Source: Escherichia coli | GTDB lineage: Bacteria; Pseudomonadota; Gammaproteobacteria; Enterobacterales; Enterobacteriaceae | DNA: 64,000 nt | NCBI RefSeq assembly: GCF_024502345.1 | Contig: NZ_JALDNN010000001.1 | Strand: one strand, 5' to 3' | Shown: one piece after another, positions 5,365-57,270 of the stretch | How the letters are laid out: the number at the start of each line of letters is the position of its first letter | Position numbering within the stretch: position 1 is the stretch's first letter | Notes under the pieces: model-generated | The model's database searches: none | What the model saw: the letters and a program-made list of their open reading frames with translations, nothing else | Told to the model about the DNA's origin: nothing | Translations under genes and position numbers: made by a program

Positions 5365-7626
5365 TTACGCCGGAATTTTGTCAATCTTAGGAATGCGTGA
5401 CCACACGCGGTGTGCTGCCATCAGCGTTAACAGTTCATCCATAAAACTACCGTCGGCGCTGTCAGCTTCCACAATCCCTTCTTCACCCTGGTCAGCGACC
5501 TTGATTGTTGCTTTAAACTTGCGCGCGTCTCCCGCCAGCGCAATCGGTTTAAGGTGTTTGTAGGCTTCCATCAGGTAGTAGTTGGCATCGCCGTTGTCAG
5601 CGATATCCGCGATATTGCCGCAAGGGACAATGACCGCATCGACCGTCAGCGAAGGCGCACCGGCAAAGGTAGCGGCTATAGGCAACACCGTACCGTCATC
5701 CGCAGTCACTTCACCCATTCGGGAGTAGAGCAGTTTGGCATGAACGCCTTTGGCCTTCAGGGCCTTAAGAATGGCCAGAAGGTCTGCCGATCTCACTTCA
5801 TCATTAAGTAAAATCGCTACCACGCGACCTTTCACATCACCGTCAGGAATGGCGTACAAACTTAAGGATGGATCCTTTTTCAGACCGTTGACGTCCGGAG
5901 GTGGGGTGATATTCAGCTGGTCGTCAGTCAGTTCGATACCGAGATTTTTCGCCACCGCCTGGGCCAGAGTGAGATCAATATGCGCCAGCTGGTCAACAAC
6001 GCGCTCACGAATATACGGACGAACGACTTTGCTTAACTCAAAACTGAAACCATCGACAATATGACGCTGCTCGAATGGCGTCTGACTTAGCCAGAACAGA
6101 CGCGGATGGGAATAATATTCGCCAAAAGATGGACTGCGCTCGCGAACTTTATTTCCTTCCACGCGTTCCTGATATGATTCAAAACCGCCGCGTTTCGGTC
6201 CCGGCGGTGTTTCGCGCGGCCAGTTATCGTTGATCGAGTTCGGTTCGTAATTCGCCGGGTTAGTGTCGATCCCCATACGATGCATGCCATCACGCTGGAA
6301 GTTGTGGTAAGGGCAGGTCGGACGGTTAATCGGAATCTCATGGAAATTCGGCCCACCAAGACGACTGATTTGTGTATCGGTATAGGAGAACAAACGTCCC
6401 TGCAACAGCGGATCGTTGGTGAAGTCCAGTCCCGGCACGATATGCCCAGGATGGAAAGCCGCCTGTTCGTTTTCAGCAAAGAAGTTATCCGGGTTGCGAT
6501 TGAGCACCATTTTGCCGACACGCTGAACGGGCACCAGTTCTTCCGGGATAAGTTTGGTTGGATCGAGAAGATCGAAGTCGAACTTGAATTCATCTTCTTC
6601 AGGAATCAACTGGAAGCCCAGTTCGTATTCCGGAAAATCGCCTGCTTCAATGGCTTCCCACAACTCGCGGCGGTGGAAGTCCGGGTCACGTCCGGTTAGT
6701 TTTTGTGCTTCATCCCAAACGAGTGAGGCTTTACCTGCCAGTGGTTTCCAGTGGAAACGTACAAACGTTGCCTTCCCTTCGGCATTAATCAGGCGGAAGG
6801 TATGAATACCAAAGCCTTCCATGGTGCGGTAACTGCGGGGGATGCCGCGATCCGACATCGCCCACATCACGTTGTGCAGAGTTTCAGGTTGCAGAGAAAC
6901 ATAATCCCAGAAAGTATCGTGGGCGCTTTGCCCTTGTGGAATTGCCCAGTGTGGTTCTGGTTTTACCGCATGAACAAAATCGGGGAATTTATGCGCATCC
7001 TGGATAAAGAAGATTGGCGTGTTATTGCCAACAAGGTCAAAAATACCCTCTTCGGTATAGAATTTGGTGGCAAAGCCACGGATATCACGCACGGTATCGG
7101 CAGAGCCAGCACCACCCTGAACAGTAGAGAACCTAACAAATACTGGGGTGATTTTGTTCGGATCTGAGAGGAAATCCGCTTTGGTGATATCGCTTAAGCT
7201 TTTATATGGCTGGAAATAACCGTGAGCTGCTGATCCACGTGCATGAACAATACGTTCCGGGATGCGCTCATGGTCAAAGTGGGTGATTTTCTCGCGCAGA
7301 ATAAAATCTTCCAGCAGCGTTGGACCACGGCTACCGGCACGCAGTGAGTTTTGATCGTCGGCGATGCGCACGCCCTGATTAGTGGTCAGCGCATAATTTT
7401 CACTGCCTTTGCGTACGTCTTCCAGAGAATTAAGTTTTTCGTTACGTGTATCAGGGGCTTTCAGGCTCCCAGGGGCGGTAGGTTGTGCACCTGGCGGTGT
7501 TGGTTCAGCCGCTGGACGATGAGATCCGTCCTCAGGTGCCAGTGAGTCCATCCCCGGTTTCGCTTCGCTGGAATCGTGTAGTGGTGACTGGTGCTGATGT
7601 GGGTTCTTTTCGTTATGTTGCGACAT
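5365..7626 (-). CDS. katE: Catalase HPII (large-subunit monofunctional catalase)
   Basis: 753-aa [32 protein letters not shown] with catalase core and C-terminal flavodoxin-like extension. Confidence 0.97.
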
Positions 7627-50848: not shown

Positions 50849-50985
50849 CGTGTAATGGCTGCATGAAATAAACAATAAAATATAAATAACATTATCAGCC
50901 TGCTGACGGCTTGAAGAGAGTCACAGTATCTTGTGCAACATTATTGGAAAGAGTGAGGGGCGAGGTAGCGAAGTGGAAAAATGTT

Positions 50986-51091
50986 AAAAAAAAGCCCATC
51001 GTGGGAGATGGGCAAAGACTACACACAGCAATTCGTTGTTTCACTCAGGGGATTTCCATGCTTATAAATCAATATGTTGATTTATAACCGT
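50986..51091 (-). ncRNA. rprA: Small regulatory RNA RprA (Hfq-dependent activator of rpoS translation)
   Basis: Minus strand reads ACGGTTATAAATCAACATATTGATTTATAAGCATGGAAATCCCCTGAGTGAAACAACGAATTGCTGTGTGTAGTCTTTGCCCATCTCCCACGATGGGC followed by a T-run; between ydiL and ydiK. Confidence 0.9.
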
Positions 51092-51276: not shown

Positions 51277-52389
51277 TTACTTATTCGGTTTCTCGATTTC
51301 GCCCAGTTCTTCGAGAATTTCTTCCGGTTGGTCCGTCGGCGGCGGGACTTCTTCCACCCACGCGGCAAACAGACGCCAGGAAACGGCTAACAGAACCGGA
51401 CCAATAAACAGACCGATCATCCCGAAAGCAATCAAACCACCAATAACACCAGAGAGGATCAGGATCAGCGGTAAATCGGCACCCATGCGAATTAACATTG
51501 GGCGGATGACGTTATCCAGCGTGCCAACCACACCGCTCCACACTAACAATACCGTTCCCCAGGTGGTATCGCCAGTCCAGTAGAGCCAGATAATCGCCGG
51601 AATCAGTACCGGCAACGGGCCAAGCTGGACAAGGCAGGAGAGGATCATTAACACCGTTAGCAACGTTGCATAAGGTACGCCGGATACGGCGAGGCCGATA
51701 CCGCCAAGCACTGCCTGTACTAACGCCGTCACCACCACACCCAGCGCCACCGCGCGGATAGCCTGTGCCGCCAGCAGCACGGCGGCATCTCCGCGAACGC
51801 CTGCCAGACGGGTTGCAAAATGGCGAATGCCTTGTGCCACCTGTTCACCGCGCCAGTACAGCAGGGCACTGAAGAGAAGCATCAGCGCACAATGCACCAT
51901 AAAGCGCCCGATATGCGCCGCTTGCCCAACGAACCAGGTGGTGGTGGTGCCAATATAAGGGCGGACTTTCGCCATGATCGCCGTCCCCCCCATATCCAGC
52001 AAGTTGTGCCAGCCTGCATACAGCTTCGCGCCAATCACCGGAATGGTATTAAGCCACGCCAGATCGGGTAACGTCATGTCACCGCTGGAAATGGCTTTAA
52101 TTAGCGGGCCGCTGCCGTCGACGATACTGTTAACCAGCAAAGCAATAGGGATGATAAACACCATCACTAATAACAGCGTCATCACCAGAACGGCGAGAGA
52201 GCGGCGGCCAAACATGATCTTTTGCAAACGTAACAATACCGGCCAGGTGGCGATAACCACCGTACCGGCCCATGCAAAGCCGAGAATAAAGGGTTGAACA
52301 ATCCACAGACATGCCACAATCATGATGGCTAAAAACAGCACCGAAAGCAGAATTTGTGCGACATCCCTGGGCTGACGAACATTTACCAT
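51277..52389 (-). CDS. ydiK: AI-2E/PerM-family inner membrane transporter
   Basis: 370-aa multi-pass ORF. Confidence 0.9.
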   Translation of the reverse strand: MVNVRQPRDVAQILLSVLFLAIMIVACLWIVQPFILGFAWAGTVVIATWPVLLRLQKIMFGRRSLAVLVMTLLLVMVFIIPIALLVNSIVDGSGPLIKAISSGDMTLPDLAWLNTIPVIGAKLYAGWHNLLDMGGTAIMAKVRPYIGTTTTWFVGQAAHIGRFMVHCALMLLFSALLYWRGEQVAQGIRHFATRLAGVRGDAAVLLAAQAIRAVALGVVVTALVQAVLGGIGLAVSGVPYATLLTVLMILSCLVQLGPLPVLIPAIIWLYWTGDTTWGTVLLVWSGVVGTLDNVIRPMLIRMGADLPLILILSGVIGGLIAFGMIGLFIGPVLLAVSWRLFAAWVEEVPPPTDQPEEILEELGEIEKPNK

Positions 52390-52602
52390 AACTACTTTTC
52401 ACCTTTTTTGTGCGTCAAATCGTCGACGCGACGTGAACACGCGAAACTCACCTACATAATGATGAGCAATTTCAGCGGTTTTTAACAGGCCGATTCTGCC
52501 CTTAATTCTGATGGGCGTGTTAGAAAAAAATGTGGTACAACAACTCAGGCAACACGCAAACGATTAATCTCTCATCACAGACCGCAGGAAAGGGTCAATA
52601 TA

Positions 52603-55600
52603 ATGATTCCACAGATTTCCCAGGCACCCGGCGTCGTTCAACTGGTGCTTAATTTTTTGCAAGAGCTGGAGCAACAAGGTTTTACCGGCGATACGGCGAC
52701 AAGTTATGCCGATCGTCTGACAATGTCGACCGACAACAGTATTTACCAACTTCTCCCCGATGCGGTGGTATTTCCGCGTTCAACCGCAGATGTGGCGCTG
52801 ATCGCCCGTCTTGCCGCGCAGGAACGCTATTCATCGCTGATCTTTACCCCCCGCGGCGGCGGCACCGGCACTAACGGTCAGGCGCTCAACCAGGGGATTA
52901 TTGTTGATATGTCCCGCCATATGAACCGCATCATCGAAATTAACCCTGAAGAGGGCTGGGTGCGCGTTGAGGCCGGGGTGATAAAAGATCAACTCAATCA
53001 GTACCTGAAACCGTTCGGCTACTTTTTTGCGCCGGAACTTTCGACCAGCAACCGGGCAACGCTCGGTGGGATGATCAATACCGATGCATCCGGTCAGGGA
53101 TCGCTGGTCTATGGCAAAACGTCAGATCACGTACTTGGCGTACGCGCGGTGTTGTTGGGGGGCGATATTCTCGATACGCAACCTTTACCCGTCGAATTGG
53201 CGGAAACGCTGGGTAAATCCAATACCACAATCGGGCGAATTTATAACACGGTTTATCAACGTTGCCGTCAGCAACGCCAGTTAATTATCGACAACTTCCC
53301 CAAACTTAACCGCTTTCTTACCGGTTACGATCTGCGTCATGTCTTTAACGATGAGATGACCGAGTTCGACCTGACGCGCATTCTGACGGGTTCAGAAGGG
53401 ACGCTGGCCTTTATTACCGAAGCGCGGCTGGATATTACGCGCTTGCCTAAAGTGCGCCGTCTGGTGAACGTCAAATATGACTCTTTTGACTCTGCGCTGC
53501 GTAACGCGCCGTTTATGGTTGAGGCGCGGGCGCTTTCGGTAGAGACGGTGGACTCAAAAGTGCTGAATCTGGCGCGGGAAGATATTGTCTGGCATTCCGT
53601 CAGCGAGTTGATTACCGATGTGCCTGACCAAGAGATGCTCGGGCTGAACATTGTGGAATTTGCTGGTGATGATGAGGCGCTGATTGATGAGCGGGTAAAT
53701 GCACTCTGTGCGCGGTTGGATGAGCTGATCGCCAGTCATCAAGCAGGTGTCATCGGCTGGCAGGTGTGCCGTGAGCTGGCGGGGGTTGAACGTATCTATG
53801 CAATGCGCAAAAAAGCCGTTGGTCTGCTTGGCAATGCCAAAGGTGCCGCTAAGCCAATTCCGTTTGCTGAGGATACCTGCGTACCGCCGGAACACCTGGC
53901 GGATTATATTGCTGAATTTCGCGCGCTGCTCGACAGCCACGGCTTAAGCTACGGTATGTTCGGTCACGTCGACGCAGGTGTCTTGCACGTCCGTCCAGCG
54001 CTGGATATGTGCGATCCTCAACAAGAGATTTTGATGAAGCAAATCTCTGATGACGTGGTGGCGCTGACTGCGAAATACGGTGGTTTGTTGTGGGGCGAGC
54101 ACGGCAAAGGTTTTCGCGCTGAATACAGCCCGGCGTTTTTCGGTGAGGAACTTTTTGCAGAACTGCGCAAAGTGAAAGCGGCATTTGACCCGCATAACCG
54201 ACTCAACCCAGGGAAGATTTGCCCGCCAGAAGGTCTCGATGCGCCGATGATGAAAGTGGACGCGGTGAAGCGCGGTACATTCGATCGGCAGATCCCCATT
54301 GCGGTACGCCAGCAGTGGCGCGGTGCGATGGAGTGTAACGGCAACGGTTTATGCTTCAACTTTGATGCCCGTAGTCCGATGTGTCCGTCGATGAAGATCA
54401 CCCAGAACCGGATTCATTCACCGAAAGGGCGCGCAACGCTGGTGCGTGAATGGCTGCGTTTGTTGGCGGATCGCGGCGTTGATCCACTCAAACTGGAACA
54501 AGAACTGCCTGAATCCGGCGTCAGTTTGCGGACGTTAATTGCCCGCACGCGCAATAGCTGGCATGCGAATAAAGGCGAATATGACTTCTCACACGAAGTC
54601 AAAGAGGCGATGTCGGGCTGTCTGGCCTGTAAAGCGTGTTCGACCCAGTGCCCCATCAAAATTGATGTGCCGGAGTTTCGCTCTCGTTTTCTGCAGCTCT
54701 ATCACACCCGTTATTTACGCCCGCTGCGCGACCACCTCGTCGCTACGGTCGAGAGCTACGCGCCGCTGATGGCACGCGCGCCGAAAACCTTTAACTTCTT
54801 CATTAACCAGCCGCTGGTGCGCAAACTCTCGGAAAAACATATCGGCATGGTTGATTTGCCGCTGCTGTCGGTCCCCTCGCTACAACAACAAATGGTGGGG
54901 CATCGCTCGGCAAACATGACGCTGGAACAGCTTGAATCTCTCAATGCAGAGCAGAAAGCGCGCACAGTGTTGGTGGTGCAGGACCCCTTTACCAGCTATT
55001 ACGATGCGCAAGTGGTGGCGGATTTTGTCCGTCTGGTCGAAAAATTAGGTTTCCAGCCTGTGTTACTGCCATTTTCGCCAAATGGCAAAGCCCAGCATAT
55101 TAAAGGTTTTCTTAATCGTTTTGCGAAGACGGCGAAAAAGACGGCGGATTTCCTCAACCGTATGGCGAAGCTGGGTATGCCAATGGTGGGCGTCGATCCG
55201 GCGCTGGTACTTTGTTATCGCGATGAATATAAACTGGCGCTGGGCGAGGAGCGTGGCGAGTTTAACGTCTTACTGGCGAATGAATGGCTGGCAAGCGCAC
55301 TTGAGTCACAGCCAGTGGCTACAGTCAGCGGTGAATCATGGTATTTCTTTGGTCACTGTACCGAAGTTACCGCCTTGCCGGGTGCGCCAGCACAATGGGC
55401 CGCGATATTTGCCCGTTTTGGCGCGAAACTGGAAAATGTCAGCGTGGGTTGCTGCGGCATGGCAGGGACTTACGGACATGAAGCGAAAAACCATGAAAAT
55501 TCGCTCGGGATCTATGAGTTATCCTGGCATCAGGCTATGCAGCGACTGCCGCGTAACCGCTGTCTGGCGACCGGATATTCCTGCCGTAGCCAGGTAAAAC

Positions 55601-55659
55601 GGGTTGAAGGCACGGGGGTACGCCATCCTGTGCAGGCTTTACTGGAGATTATTAAATGA
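52603..55659 (+). CDS. ydiJ: Large FAD-linked oxidase with Fe-S/CCG domains (D-2-hydroxyglutarate dehydrogenase-like)
   Basis: 1018-aa ORF; N-terminal FAD-binding PCMH-type domain, Cys-rich C-terminal half. Confidence 0.93.
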   Translation: MIPQISQAPGVVQLVLNFLQELEQQGFTGDTATSYADRLTMSTDNSIYQLLPDAVVFPRSTADVALIARLAAQERYSSLIFTPRGGGTGTNGQALNQGIIVDMSRHMNRIIEINPEEGWVRVEAGVIKDQLNQYLKPFGYFFAPELSTSNRATLGGMINTDASGQGSLVYGKTSDHVLGVRAVLLGGDILDTQPLPVELAETLGKSNTTIGRIYNTVYQRCRQQRQLIIDNFPKLNRFLTGYDLRHVFNDEMTEFDLTRILTGSEGTLAFITEARLDITRLPKVRRLVNVKYDSFDSALRNAPFMVEARALSVETVDSKVLNLAREDIVWHSVSELITDVPDQEMLGLNIVEFAGDDEALIDERVNALCARLDELIASHQAGVIGWQVCRELAGVERIYAMRKKAVGLLGNAKGAAKPIPFAEDTCVPPEHLADYIAEFRALLDSHGLSYGMFGHVDAGVLHVRPALDMCDPQQEILMKQISDDVVALTAKYGGLLWGEHGKGFRAEYSPAFFGEELFAELRKVKAAFDPHNRLNPGKICPPEGLDAPMMKVDAVKRGTFDRQIPIAVRQQWRGAMECNGNGLCFNFDARSPMCPSMKITQNRIHSPKGRATLVREWLRLLADRGVDPLKLEQELPESGVSLRTLIARTRNSWHANKGEYDFSHEVKEAMSGCLACKACSTQCPIKIDVPEFRSRFLQLYHTRYLRPLRDHLVATVESYAPLMARAPKTFNFFINQPLVRKLSEKHIGMVDLPLLSVPSLQQQMVGHRSANMTLEQLESLNAEQKARTVLVVQDPFTSYYDAQVVADFVRLVEKLGFQPVLLPFSPNGKAQHIKGFLNRFAKTAKKTADFLNRMAKLGMPMVGVDPALVLCYRDEYKLALGEERGEFNVLLANEWLASALESQPVATVSGESWYFFGHCTEVTALPGAPAQWAAIFARFGAKLENVSVGCCGMAGTYGHEAKNHENSLGIYELSWHQAMQRLPRNRCLATGYSCRSQVKRVEGTGVRHPVQALLEIIK

Positions 55660-56066
55660 TATGGAAACGGAAAATCACCCTGGAAGCACTGAATGCTATG
55701 GGTGAAGGAAACATGGTGGGGTTCCTGGATATTCGCTTTGAACATATTGGTGATGACACCCTTGAAGCGACAATGCCAGTAGACTCGCGGACAAAGCAGC
55801 CTTTCGGGTTGCTGCATGGAGGAGCATCCGTGGTACTGGCCGAAAGTATCGGTTCCGTTGCCGGTTATTTATGTACCGAAGGTGAGCAAAAAGTGGTTGG
55901 TCTGGAAATCAATGCTAACCACGTCCGCTCGGCACGAGAAGGGCGGGTGCGCGGCGTATGCAAACCGTTGCATCTCGGTTCGCGTCACCAGGTCTGGCAG
56001 ATTGAAATCTTCGATGAGAAAGGGCGTTTGTGCTGTTCGTCACGATTGACGACCGCCATTTTGTGA
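55656..56066 (+). CDS. menI: 1,4-dihydroxy-2-naphthoyl-CoA thioesterase (hotdog fold)
   Basis: 136-aa ORF; 4-nt overlap with ydiJ stop. Confidence 0.93.
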   Translation: MIWKRKITLEALNAMGEGNMVGFLDIRFEHIGDDTLEATMPVDSRTKQPFGLLHGGASVVLAESIGSVAGYLCTEGEQKVVGLEINANHVRSAREGRVRGVCKPLHLGSRHQVWQIEIFDEKGRLCCSSRLTTAIL

Positions 56067-56165
56067 CGTTGTCACCAGAAAAGTGTGACGCATATTGCTT
56101 TTGGTCATTATCTGCACAGTAAACGGTGGTATACTGTGCAGGTCTTGTCTAAAAGCGAGGATGCT

Positions 56166-56354
56166 ATGTCTACTCAACTTGATCCCACCCAGCTGGCCAT
56201 TGAATTTTTACGCCGTGACCAGAGCAATCTTTCACCTGCCCAATATCTCAAACGTCTGAAACAACTAGAACTTGAATTTGCTGACCTGCTTACTCTCTCT
56301 TCTGCTGAATTAAAAGAAGAAATCTACTTTGCCTGGCGTCTGGGCGTGCATTGA
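56166..56354 (+). CDS. ydiH: Uncharacterized small protein YdiH
   Basis: 62-aa ORF from MSTQLDPTQLAIEFLRRDQ; ORF-track 89-aa extension rejected. Confidence 0.75.
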   Translation: MSTQLDPTQLAIEFLRRDQSNLSPAQYLKRLKQLELEFADLLTLSSAELKEEIYFAWRLGVH

Positions 56355-56529
56355 TCCTGACTTAATGCCGCAAGTTCGCCAAATCGACCTGGATTAACCT
56401 CCGTCCAGGTTCGATGACCTTCTTAATACTGCTTATCTACCGCCTGATATTGTTCAAAAATAATACTAATCGCAGTTTGTGTTAAAACGGCGGGTTAGCT
56501 TTATGAGATTATTCTTATCGCCCCTTCAA

Positions 56530-56612
56530 GAGCTAAGCCACTGAGAGTGCCGGAGATAAGCGCCGGATGGGGTAGAAACCCTTAAGCCTGTGTCGCACAG
56601 ACTTAAGGGTTT
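56530..56612 (+). ncRNA. rydB: Candidate small RNA with intrinsic terminator (position fits RydB)
   Basis: Hairpin cccttaag-cctgtgtcgcacaga-cttaaggg followed by ttttcttattt, about 200 nt past ydiH stop in the ydiH-sufA spacer; 5' end and strand not verified. Confidence 0.4.
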
Positions 56613-56703
56613 TCTTATTTCTGAACGCTGCACTTTTTTACCTATCTCTTAAATAGTCATTTTCAATACAACTTTTTCTTTTTCATCACAGCCTTAATGC
56701 TCC

Positions 56704-56725
56704 TTAGATAATAACCATTATCTAA
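56704..56725 (+). promoter_or_regulatory. Fur-box-like site in the sufA promoter region
   Basis: agataataaccattatct resembles the GATAAT-N-ATTATC Fur consensus, about 180 nt upstream of sufA. Confidence 0.55.
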
Positions 56726-56901
56726 CAATGAGATACCTAATTCTTAGCGTGCCTGTTAACCCACACATCAGGGTCTATGCTTATTAAAAGCAGGCAAAAA
56801 GCATGTTTTACGGTAAAGCCCCTGCGTTTGCTGGGTTGAACTGATAATCATTATCACTAACATGCTGTTATACGCTGAAAGCGATGAAGTGAGGTAAATC
56901 G

Positions 56902-57270
56902 ATGGACATGCATTCAGGAACCTTTAACCCACAAGATTTCGCCTGGCAAGGCTTAACGCTGACACCCGCAGCGGCGATACACATCCGTGAGCTGGTGGCA
57001 AAGCAGCCGGGTATGGTCGGCGTGCGCTTAGGCGTGAAGCAAACGGGCTGCGCGGGCTTTGGCTATGTGCTCGACAGTGTTAGCGAGCCGGACAAAGACG
57101 ATCTGCTGTTTGAACACGACGGCGCGAAGCTGTTTGTCCCGCTGCAAGCGATGCCGTTTATTGATGGCACGGAAGTCGATTTCGTTCGTGAAGGACTTAA
57201 TCAGATATTCAAATTTCACAACCCTAAAGCCCAGAATGAATGTGGCTGTGGCGAAAGCTTTGGGGTATAG
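56902..57270 (+). CDS. sufA: Fe-S cluster A-type carrier
   Basis: 122-aa ORF with C-terminal CGCGESF motif. Confidence 0.96.

Follow-up and report, generated by a model that had tools for sequence, protein, structure and literature searches.

The ydiJ-menI operon of Escherichia coli: a D-2-hydroxyglutarate dehydrogenase fused to an HdrD-like module

In a window of 64,000 nucleotides of E. coli DNA (the whole stretch that was analysed, contig NZ_JALDNN010000001.1), the gene of a large flavo-iron-sulfur protein, YdiJ, runs into that of a menaquinone-pathway thioesterase, MenI, and the arrangement raises the question of where the electrons of YdiJ go and whether its neighbor tells us anything about it. 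The preliminary description of the locus reported a 1018-aa open reading frame that overlaps menI by 4 nt (ATGA) and is followed by ydiH; our coordinates agree, and the RefSeq annotation of the identical DNA carries the same three genes (Table 1). The window holds an ordinary E. coli ydiJ-menI operon and a separately transcribed small gene, ydiH. The ydiJ that it carries is a common E. coli form: other RefSeq copies are 99.9-100% identical to it in DNA and protein, and nothing material differs.

Table 1. Features of the ydiJ-menI-ydiH locus, in window coordinates
Feature	Position	Strand	Description	Evidence
ydiJ CDS	52603..55659	+	1018 aa, ATG start; D-2-hydroxyglutarate dehydrogenase (FAD + Fe-S)	ORF, RefSeq annotation, NCBIfam, published biochemistry/knockouts
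FAD_binding_4 (PF01565)	52756..53178	+	YdiJ residues 52-192	Pfam 2.6e-38
FAD-oxidase_C (PF02913)	53443..54219	+	cap/substrate domain, YdiJ residues 281-539	Pfam 2.2e-68
Ferredoxin-like (HdrC-like) Fe-S segment	54331..54663	+	YdiJ residues 577-687	Fer4_8, Cys map, invariance, PDB profile match to HdrC
HdrB/LutA-like two-repeat CCG fold	54955..55656	+	YdiJ residues ~785-1018	predicted structure
ydiJ/menI junction	55644..55659	+	Shine-Dalgarno-like GGAG within the ydiJ 3' end, then ATGA start/stop overlap	sequence
menI (ydiI) CDS	55656..56066	+	136 aa; hotdog-fold 1,4-dihydroxy-2-naphthoyl-CoA thioesterase	Pfam, NCBIfam, PDB
sigma-70 promoter for ydiH	56069..56096	+	TTGTCA-16-CATATT, menI-ydiH spacer	consensus scan, published hexamers
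ydiH CDS	56166..56354	+	62 aa, YdiH family	RefSeq annotation, Pfam

The identity of the first gene is clear. YdiJ scores 1727.9 bits against the NCBIfam equivalog NF049975, for which the curated cutoff is 1350 bits and a full-length match is required, with residues 1-1016 aligned on profile positions 1-1017 of 1018. E. coli K-12 YdiJ (D2HGDH-Ec, NF049975, PMC9504171) has the same length, the same domains, and the same neighbors. The substrate, which the preliminary description had left to a literature check, is D-2-hydroxyglutarate (D-2-HG) (PMC9504171, PMC12297413): D-2-HG arising from SerA is recycled by YdiJ (Samsonov 2022; Nat Commun 2025), with a Km of 83 uM (PMC9504171), and ydiJ knockouts build up D-2-HG (PMC9504171, PMC12297413), a build-up that is suppressed by deletion of serA. 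PMC9504171 describes strict specificity for D-2-HG and cites a report of FAD and one 4Fe-4S cluster in the isolated enzyme. In vivo, the GlcD-like and the GlpC-like halves are both needed. The genes, their enzyme activities, and the D-2-HG-clearing role are thus already published and in routine annotation, so the locus matters little as a discovery; of some interest are the natural acceptor of the YdiJ electrons, which bears on proposals for YdiJ-type enzymes as self-contained D-2-HG scavengers, and the persistence of the link to menI.

YdiJ joins two modules in one chain: a VAO/GlcD-type FAD module at the N terminus and, fused to it, an HdrD-like module that consists of an HdrC-like ferredoxin segment and an HdrB-like double CCG fold. 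The FAD-linked oxidase domain of the preliminary description is borne out by the two Pfam matches, at 131.3 and 231.1 bits for PF01565 and PF02913 versus cutoffs of 26.4 and 21.2, which place the module in the VAO/PCMH (GlcD-like) group; its PDB relatives are LctD, glycolate oxidase, LDHD, and D2HGDH. For residue conservation, a search that returned only relatives of at least 89% identity was replaced by an exhaustive representative search, and among the 60 homologs, His455, His462, Glu499, and His500 of the FAD-oxidase_C domain are invariant.

The Fe-S/CCG character assigned earlier to the C-terminal half holds for its ferredoxin part at a narrow margin (Fer4_8, residues 577-687, 2.1e-6, 28.6 bits versus a cutoff of 27). 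A dicluster ferredoxin of the Fer4_8/HdrC-like type has two CxxCxxCxxxCP motifs; the second motif of YdiJ is canonical (C673-xx-C676-xx-C679-xxx-C683-P), and the first has three cysteines only (C578-x5-C584-x9-C594-P). All seven are invariant in the 60 homologs. The cysteine pattern of YdiJ could hold more clusters than the one 4Fe-4S reported.

The CCG part, by contrast, has no counterpart in Pfam: CCG (PF02754) was matched neither by whole YdiJ nor, with the threshold relaxed to E<=10, by its C-terminal half, and structure prediction was therefore used. Sequence and profile searches of the PDB with the C-terminal half returned the HdrC-like ferredoxin motif only, with no HdrB or LutA. The predicted structure supports two tandem Rossmann-like CCG-domain folds. 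Repeat 2 carries the invariant pairs and triplet His918-Cys919, Cys950-Cys951-Gly952, and Ser993-Cys994, with four invariant cysteines in the spacing C919-x30-C950C951G-x41-C994; Cys987 is not conserved. Repeat 1 is devoid of conserved cysteines and has instead invariant Asp794, Gly828, Lys829, and Gly835, of which the first three lie at positions apparently equivalent to those of the repeat-2 cysteines, in a register drawn from secondary structure. In HdrB, each repeat carries the cluster signature C-x(31-39)-CCG-x(35-36)-C-xx-C, a pattern that YdiJ does not reproduce. YdiJ thereby departs from the CCG modules of HdrD, GlpC, LutA, HdrB-HdrC, and EtfD in its lack of a Pfam CCG match, in its cysteine-less repeat 1, in the four cysteines (HC...CCG...SC) of repeat 2 versus the canonical five (C...CCG...CxxC), and in having the electron-transfer module fused to its own dehydrogenase. 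By sequence score, the C-terminal part is a homolog of GlpC and not a GlpC, with 109.9 bits over residues 664-1016 against the equivalog NF008369, whose cutoff is 278. More speculatively, the cysteine-less repeat could bind quinone or offer a new site for some other ligand.

Taken together, the best explanation, to which we give a probability of roughly 0.85, is that YdiJ is a D-2-HG dehydrogenase in which a FAD module and an HdrD-like module would deliver electrons to quinone, with menI co-transcribed and ydiH transcribed apart. YdiJ is a soluble or peripheral homotetrameric enzyme that oxidizes D-2-HG, formed as a by-product of the 2-oxoglutarate reductase activity of SerA in serine synthesis, back to 2-oxoglutarate. 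From FAD, electrons would travel by way of the ferredoxin-type cluster(s) and then the CCG-repeat cluster into the membrane quinone pool, by analogy with GlpC, EtfD, and the Fe-S D-lactate dehydrogenase PP4737 of Pseudomonas; since three cysteines are all that the first ferredoxin motif offers, the path is a model. PP4737, compared here by citation only, shares the multidomain FAD, Fe-S, and GlpC-like architecture of YdiJ and, going by the title of a 2017 paper, reportedly uses quinone as its electron acceptor, which would make it a precedent for the acceptor proposed here; unlike YdiJ, it acts on D-lactate and is a paralog, not an ortholog. Quinone as the acceptor, proposed in the preliminary description, is plausible by likeness to HdrD/GlpC-type modules, while it stays unproven since the published assays used PES/DCIP as acceptors. 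A literature search found no experimental link of ydiJ to quinone and no functional study of ydiJ with menI/ydiI. YdiJ has no membrane anchor, which counts against delivery to the quinone pool, and is free of the membrane or cytochrome b part found in EtfD.

The single-domain D2HGDHs (human, PDB 6LPN; P. stutzeri) perform the same reaction on the same VAO/PCMH FAD fold. They are half as long as YdiJ, share about 23-25% identity with it, are devoid of the Fe-S/CCG module, and pass electrons to ETF and ETF-QO (PMC12297413), a relay that direct quinone delivery would spare YdiJ. The ortholog of Pseudomonas putida, PP_4493, has the same GlcD plus GlpC-like fusion at about 51% identity and, as testified by knockouts, the same D-2-HG-oxidizing role; unlike YdiJ, it serves D-lysine catabolism under the control of HgcR (PMC12297413), and no MenI-like gene adjoins it.

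The second gene is the hotdog thioesterase named in the preliminary description, as evidenced by Pfam 4HBT (1.3e-18, 67.5 bits), by NCBIfam NF007631 (1,4-dihydroxy-2-naphthoyl-CoA hydrolase; 312.2 bits, cutoff 226), and by the best PDB matches, which are full length to the E. coli YdiI entries 4K49/1SBK/1VH5 (E 4e-90). MenI/YdiI is known as the DHNA-CoA thioesterase, with solved structures. The model of its E. coli paralog EntH/YbdB gives the MenI of the window 197 bits, below the cutoff of 237, and the gene is therefore the menaquinone-pathway paralog and not the enterobactin-proofreading one. No other men gene lies at the locus. At the junction (...ATTAAATGATATGG...), the ATG of menI (55656-55658) overlaps the TGA of ydiJ (55657-55659), and the GGAG at 55644-55647 stands 8 nt upstream of that ATG. 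From this geometry only (ATGA overlap plus upstream GGAG), menI is probably translationally coupled to ydiJ. The same ATGA junction is found in 11 other Enterobacterales species, and GGAG and ATGA are kept while the final codons of YdiJ vary. By itself, an ATGA overlap is nothing special, since genes in bacterial operons overlap in this way more often than in any other. Co-transcribed with ydiJ, menI supplies the thioesterase of menaquinone synthesis.

We compared the neighborhoods of ydiJ in 79 species; outside E. coli, the sequence downstream of ydiJ was usable in 76 loci. A MenI-family thioesterase adjoins ydiJ in 12 of the 13 non-E. coli Enterobacterales loci, in three of the four from Pasteurellaceae, and also in Psychromonas and Aeromonas; in most of these, the junction measures between -4 and +15 nt. 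The adjacency is kept even when YdiJ identity is down to 57-63% and ydiK and sufA have disappeared from the neighborhood. Insertions separate ydiJ from menI in Aeromonas and Rodentibacter, and the adjacency is lost in a Rosenbergiella locus and a Haemophilus sp. locus as well as in Vibrio and Shewanella. In all, 56 of the 76 loci have a YdiJ ortholog with no MenI-like neighbor, among them seven of the Vibrio group, several Shewanella, and about eight Pseudomonas; no other conserved partner takes the place downstream of ydiJ in such loci. Outside the core enteric families, the neighbor reaches only 113-215 bits with the MenI equivalog (cutoff 226), and it sometimes scores higher with EntH. The question is why, throughout Enterobacterales, Pasteurellaceae, Aeromonas, and Psychromonas, a menaquinone-pathway thioesterase has kept its place beside ydiJ.

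One answer would be that YdiJ, as a dehydrogenase, depends on (demethyl)menaquinone in particular, such that co-expression of a menaquinone step with a menaquinone user would let D-2-HG recycling, and with it SerA-driven serine synthesis, run in anaerobic respiration. The outlasting of the surrounding synteny by the adjacency speaks for this, and the lineages concerned are facultative anaerobes containing menaquinone or demethylmenaquinone; so does the resemblance of YdiJ to GlpC, part of the anaerobic, menaquinone-linked glycerol-3-phosphate dehydrogenase, and to EtfD, a menaquinone-reducing enzyme of mycobacteria and the best structural match. We nevertheless consider it unlikely: most loci have no MenI-like neighbor, even though the Vibrio group and Shewanella are menaquinone producers; the ortholog of Pseudomonas, which has ubiquinone only, is still a functional D-2-HG dehydrogenase; the more distant neighbors fall below the MenI cutoff and menI is alone among men genes here; and the literature search turned up no link. 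The coupling to menI, used in the preliminary description to argue for quinone, is thus a weak argument: among the 79 species, the adjacency stops at these lineages, with none in Vibrio, Shewanella, Pseudomonas, or any other, and in Pseudomonas the ortholog has the same function. The stronger proposal that in enteric and related facultative anaerobes the electrons go specifically to (demethyl)menaquinone, the operon tying quinone supply to D-2-HG recycling, is a speculation that we hold to be quite unlikely; if true, anaerobic serine biosynthesis would depend on the naphthoquinone pool. A link through 2-oxoglutarate, the product of YdiJ and a substrate consumed by MenD, was rejected as too weak for so abundant a central metabolite.

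We lean slightly toward a linkage that carries no mechanistic meaning, an operon arrangement inherited in one gammaproteobacterial lineage and kept for the promoter and ribosome entry site that menI gains from it, while the two enzymes serve unrelated pathways. Both products have well-defined and unrelated published activities, the linkage is confined to one lineage and has been repeatedly lost, insertions between the genes are tolerated, and no substitute partner follows ydiJ where menI is absent. Its survival at 57-63% YdiJ identity is nonetheless the usual sign of selection for co-expression, and the junction is conserved despite the variable last codons of YdiJ. A generic glycolate or D-lactate dehydrogenase, built as a GlcD plus GlcF/GlpC fusion, is a highly improbable identity for YdiJ, although the older annotation "FAD-binding and (Fe-S)-binding domain-containing protein" would fit it, LctD, glycolate oxidase, and D-lactate dehydrogenase rank ahead of human D2HGDH among the PDB matches of the FAD module, and the GlcD, GlcE, and GlcF models match in part. 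The GlcD, GlcE, GlcF, and GlpC scores are far below their cutoffs (e.g., 189 versus 568), the YdiJ equivalog passes its cutoff by a wide margin, and model scores together with the published substrate profile (PMC9504171) and the D-2-HG build-up in knockouts rule this identity out for E. coli.

The third gene, ydiH, encodes a full-length member of its family (Pfam PF15930, 146.5 bits, positions 1-62 of 62) with no PDB relative found; among the 79 loci, it occurs in Escherichia and Citrobacter only. A GAGGA lies 5 nt upstream of the annotated start at 56166, while in the mechanical ORF list the frame extends up to a GTG at 56085. A scan of the locus gave promoter-like and terminator-like signals not above chance (four versus 4.5 expected and four versus 5.3 expected, respectively), and no ydiJ promoter was identified in it. 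Of these signals, we accept only the ydiH promoter, as it matches one already described: in PMC3946193, where the upstream operon is listed as ydiJI, the same hexamers appear as the constitutive RpoD promoter of ydiH. The gene is transcribed independently.

In the window, the RefSeq annotation gives the gene order ydiK (divergent), ydiJ, menI, ydiH and sufA. The preliminary description, a 1018-aa ydiJ overlapping menI by 4 nt with ydiH next in line, is confirmed in every particular by the mechanical ORF list, the raw sequence and RefSeq. The two genes meet in ATTAAATGATATGG, where the menI ATG (55656-55658) and the ydiJ TGA (55657-55659) form an ATGA overlap, and a GGAG lies 8 nt upstream of the menI start. 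We infer that menI is co-transcribed with ydiJ and, judging by the geometry of the junction, is probably also translationally coupled to it. The 5 kb round the locus (52000-57000) match at 95% identity or more in 5423 of 5426 complete E. coli genomes, leaving three of these without a match; 2 of the 5425 matching places are on records labelled plasmid. The locus is an ordinary, well-annotated part of the E. coli core genome that the preliminary description had delimited and named correctly; it was already known, and its main question, the substrate of YdiJ, was settled in 2022.

Coordinates of the features of the ydiJ-menI-ydiH locus and its surroundings in the window
Feature	Position	Strand	Basis
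MFS transporter ORF, 404 aa	49178-50392	-	
RprA small RNA, between ydiK and ydiL	50984-51091	-	Rfam RF00034, 118.5 bits; RefSeq annotation
ydiJ, 1018 aa	52603..55659	+	mechanical ORF list
First ferredoxin-like motif of YdiJ (C578-C594)	54334-54387		
First CCG-fold repeat of YdiJ (residues ~785-900)	54955-55300		
GGAG upstream of menI	55644-55647		
menI, 136 aa	55656..56066	+	mechanical ORF list
Sigma-70 promoter of ydiH, TTGTCA-16-CATATT, menI-ydiH spacer	56069-56096	+	consensus scan
Extended -10-like element, menI-ydiH spacer	~56128-56136	+	
ydiH, small ORF	end at 56354	+	mechanical ORF list
rydB small RNA, between ydiH and sufA	56520-56580	+	Rfam RF00118, 81.6 bits (gathering score 50)
Stem-loop with T-run	~56583-56625		

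The literature check on the substrate led to D-2-hydroxyglutarate (D-2-HG): P. ananatis ydiJ and its E. coli counterpart define a new D-2-HG dehydrogenase family (Samsonov et al. 2022, PMC9504171). In E. coli, 110-kDa subunits form a homotetramer with a Km of 83 uM that is described as strictly specific for its substrate, and SerA overexpression in ydiJ knockouts yields up to 25 g/L D-2-HG (PMC9504171). That isolated YdiJ contains FAD and a 4Fe-4S cluster is credited in the same paper to Estellon et al. 2014. Deletion of either the GlcD part or the GlpC part abolishes function in vivo, and serA deletion suppresses D-2-HG accumulation (2025 Nature Communications, PMC12297413). The P. putida ortholog PP_4493 plays the same role in D-lysine catabolism. 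YdiI/MenI is the DHNA-CoA thioesterase of menaquinone synthesis, according to a source citing E. coli work.

MenI carries a 4HBT domain (Pfam), scores 312.2 bits against its NCBIfam equivalog (NF007631, cutoff 226) and has full-length E. coli YdiI entries as its top PDB matches (E 4e-90). The whole of YdiJ falls in the equivalog "D-2-hydroxyglutarate dehydrogenase YdiJ" (NF049975; 1727.9 bits, cutoff 1350), and the FAD-linked oxidase domain described earlier is borne out by FAD_binding_4 (residues 52-192) and FAD-oxidase_C (residues 281-539). Farther along, Pfam gives a marginal Fer4_8 (residues 577-687; 28.6 bits, cutoff 27) and no CCG domain, even with the C-terminal half alone at E<=10; the NCBIfam GlpC model aligns to residues 664-1016 (1.3e-31), well under its own cutoff.

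The "CCG-type" label of the C-terminal half was considered separately at the levels of fold and of sequence signature. Residues 546-1018 give a confident AlphaFold model (mean pLDDT 93.4, pTM 0.91), and its only significant Foldseek matches in the PDB are CCG-domain proteins, namely M. smegmatis EtfD (3.8e-6, 490 columns), LutA and HdrB (three complexes), so that the label is right at the level of the fold. An exhaustive homolog search places the ~1000-aa fusion in many more than 100 clusters (50% identity), and eleven Cys are invariant among 60 diverse full-length homologs (33-58% identity) and again in a second alignment of 55 species. Three of them (C578, C584, C594) belong to the first ferredoxin-like motif, which is C-x5-C-x9-CP, with N579-G580-N581 also invariant, rather than CxxCxxCxxxCP; four (C673, C676, C679, C683) form the second, canonical CxxCxxCxxxCP motif; and four (C919, C950, C951, C994) belong to the second CCG-like repeat, HC...CCG...SC. 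By signature the label thus holds only in part: the first repeat has no conserved Cys among the 60 homologs, while D794, G828, K829 and G835 are invariant there and, by secondary-structure register rather than superposition, appear to occupy the corresponding places. These residues mark a conserved site in a repeat predicted to be unable to bind an HdrB-type cluster. The C-terminal module resembles HdrD, with an HdrC-like ferredoxin stretch followed by an HdrB-like double repeat.

To follow the pairing with menI, we looked for MenI, YdiH, YdiK and SufA at 79 loci that carry a YdiJ homolog, taken from species-representative genomes, and measured the junctions. A MenI-family gene lies directly 3' of ydiJ, on the same strand, at 12 of the 13 Enterobacterales loci from outside E. 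coli, Rosenbergiella being the one without it; ten of the twelve junctions are ATGA overlaps, one is a 1-nt overlap (TAATG) and one a 15-nt gap. The junction of L071, a locus from an uncultured Enterobacterales MAG, is a 1-nt gap. Gaps of +13 and +63 nt are found in Haemophilus and of +11 nt in Psychromonas, and Aeromonas and Rodentibacter retain menI with one ORF inserted. The gene is absent after ydiJ in the Vibrio group (7 loci), Shewanella, Pseudoalteromonas, Pseudomonas (~8 loci), Halomonas, Methylobacterium, Rhizobium, Gluconobacter, Delftia and others, and no other conserved ydiJ neighbour was found in these lineages within the 79 loci. Synteny of the flanking ydiK and sufA does not extend beyond Enterobacterales, so the pair of ydiJ and the thioesterase gene outlasts its surroundings, a pattern that usually points to selection on an operon. 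In lineages beyond the core enteric families, this neighbour reaches 113-215 bits, under the MenI equivalog cutoff of 226, and EntH sometimes scores slightly above MenI, so the MenI-family label there does not imply DHNA-CoA specificity.

The inserted ORF of Rodentibacter rarus (L036, 7269-7706; 145 aa) resembles by eye a DUF559/Vsr-like endonuclease, and a ferrochelatase-like ORF follows menI; that of Aeromonas caviae (L039, ~7058-7545; ~160 aa) has a TGATG junction with ydiJ.

The coupling to menI had been taken as a pointer to a quinone-linked dehydrogenase. Pseudomonas is not known to make menaquinone, and because its YdiJ orthologs do the same chemistry without menI, the linkage cannot define the acceptor of the family; the most it suggests is an acceptor preference confined to one lineage. 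We consider a quinone of some kind the probable acceptor (about 0.65), and a preference for naphthoquinone in enterics unlikely. The literature shows that YdiJ converts D-2-HG made by SerA to 2-oxoglutarate, that it contains FAD and Fe-S and that it needs both halves. The second half is an HdrD-like electron-transfer module with eleven invariant Cys; in the proposed scheme, electrons would pass from FAD to the ferredoxin-type cluster(s), then to the CCG-repeat cluster and on to the quinone pool. PES and DCIP, both artificial, served as acceptors in the published assay, and direct quinone use thanks to the GlpC part is a suggestion made in PMC12297413; our literature search found no paper establishing the natural acceptor or treating the ydiJ-menI link. 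YdiJ has no hydrophobic segment, its highest 19-residue hydropathy window being 1.2.

ydiH is a neighbour, outside the ydiJ-menI pair. The hexamer pair found in the menI-ydiH spacer is its constitutive RpoD promoter in RpoD SELEX, the upstream unit being given as "ydiJI" (Shimada et al. 2014), and the gene was present only in Escherichia and Citrobacter among the 79 loci. The mechanical ORF begins upstream with a GTG at 56085 (89 aa); the RefSeq ATG at 56166 (62 aa) has a better SD (GAGGA) and positions 1-62 are fully covered by the Pfam YdiH family, so the 56085-56165 extension is probably not translated. No structural relative of YdiH was found. The spacer also holds an extended -10-like element, TGGTATACT.

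In the best-matching strain, E. coli EC21Z-137 (locus L001, 10-1393), the MFS transporter gene beside ydiL is truncated by an IS1 element; the ORF is intact in the window. On the other side of the locus, a stem-loop with a T-run follows rydB.
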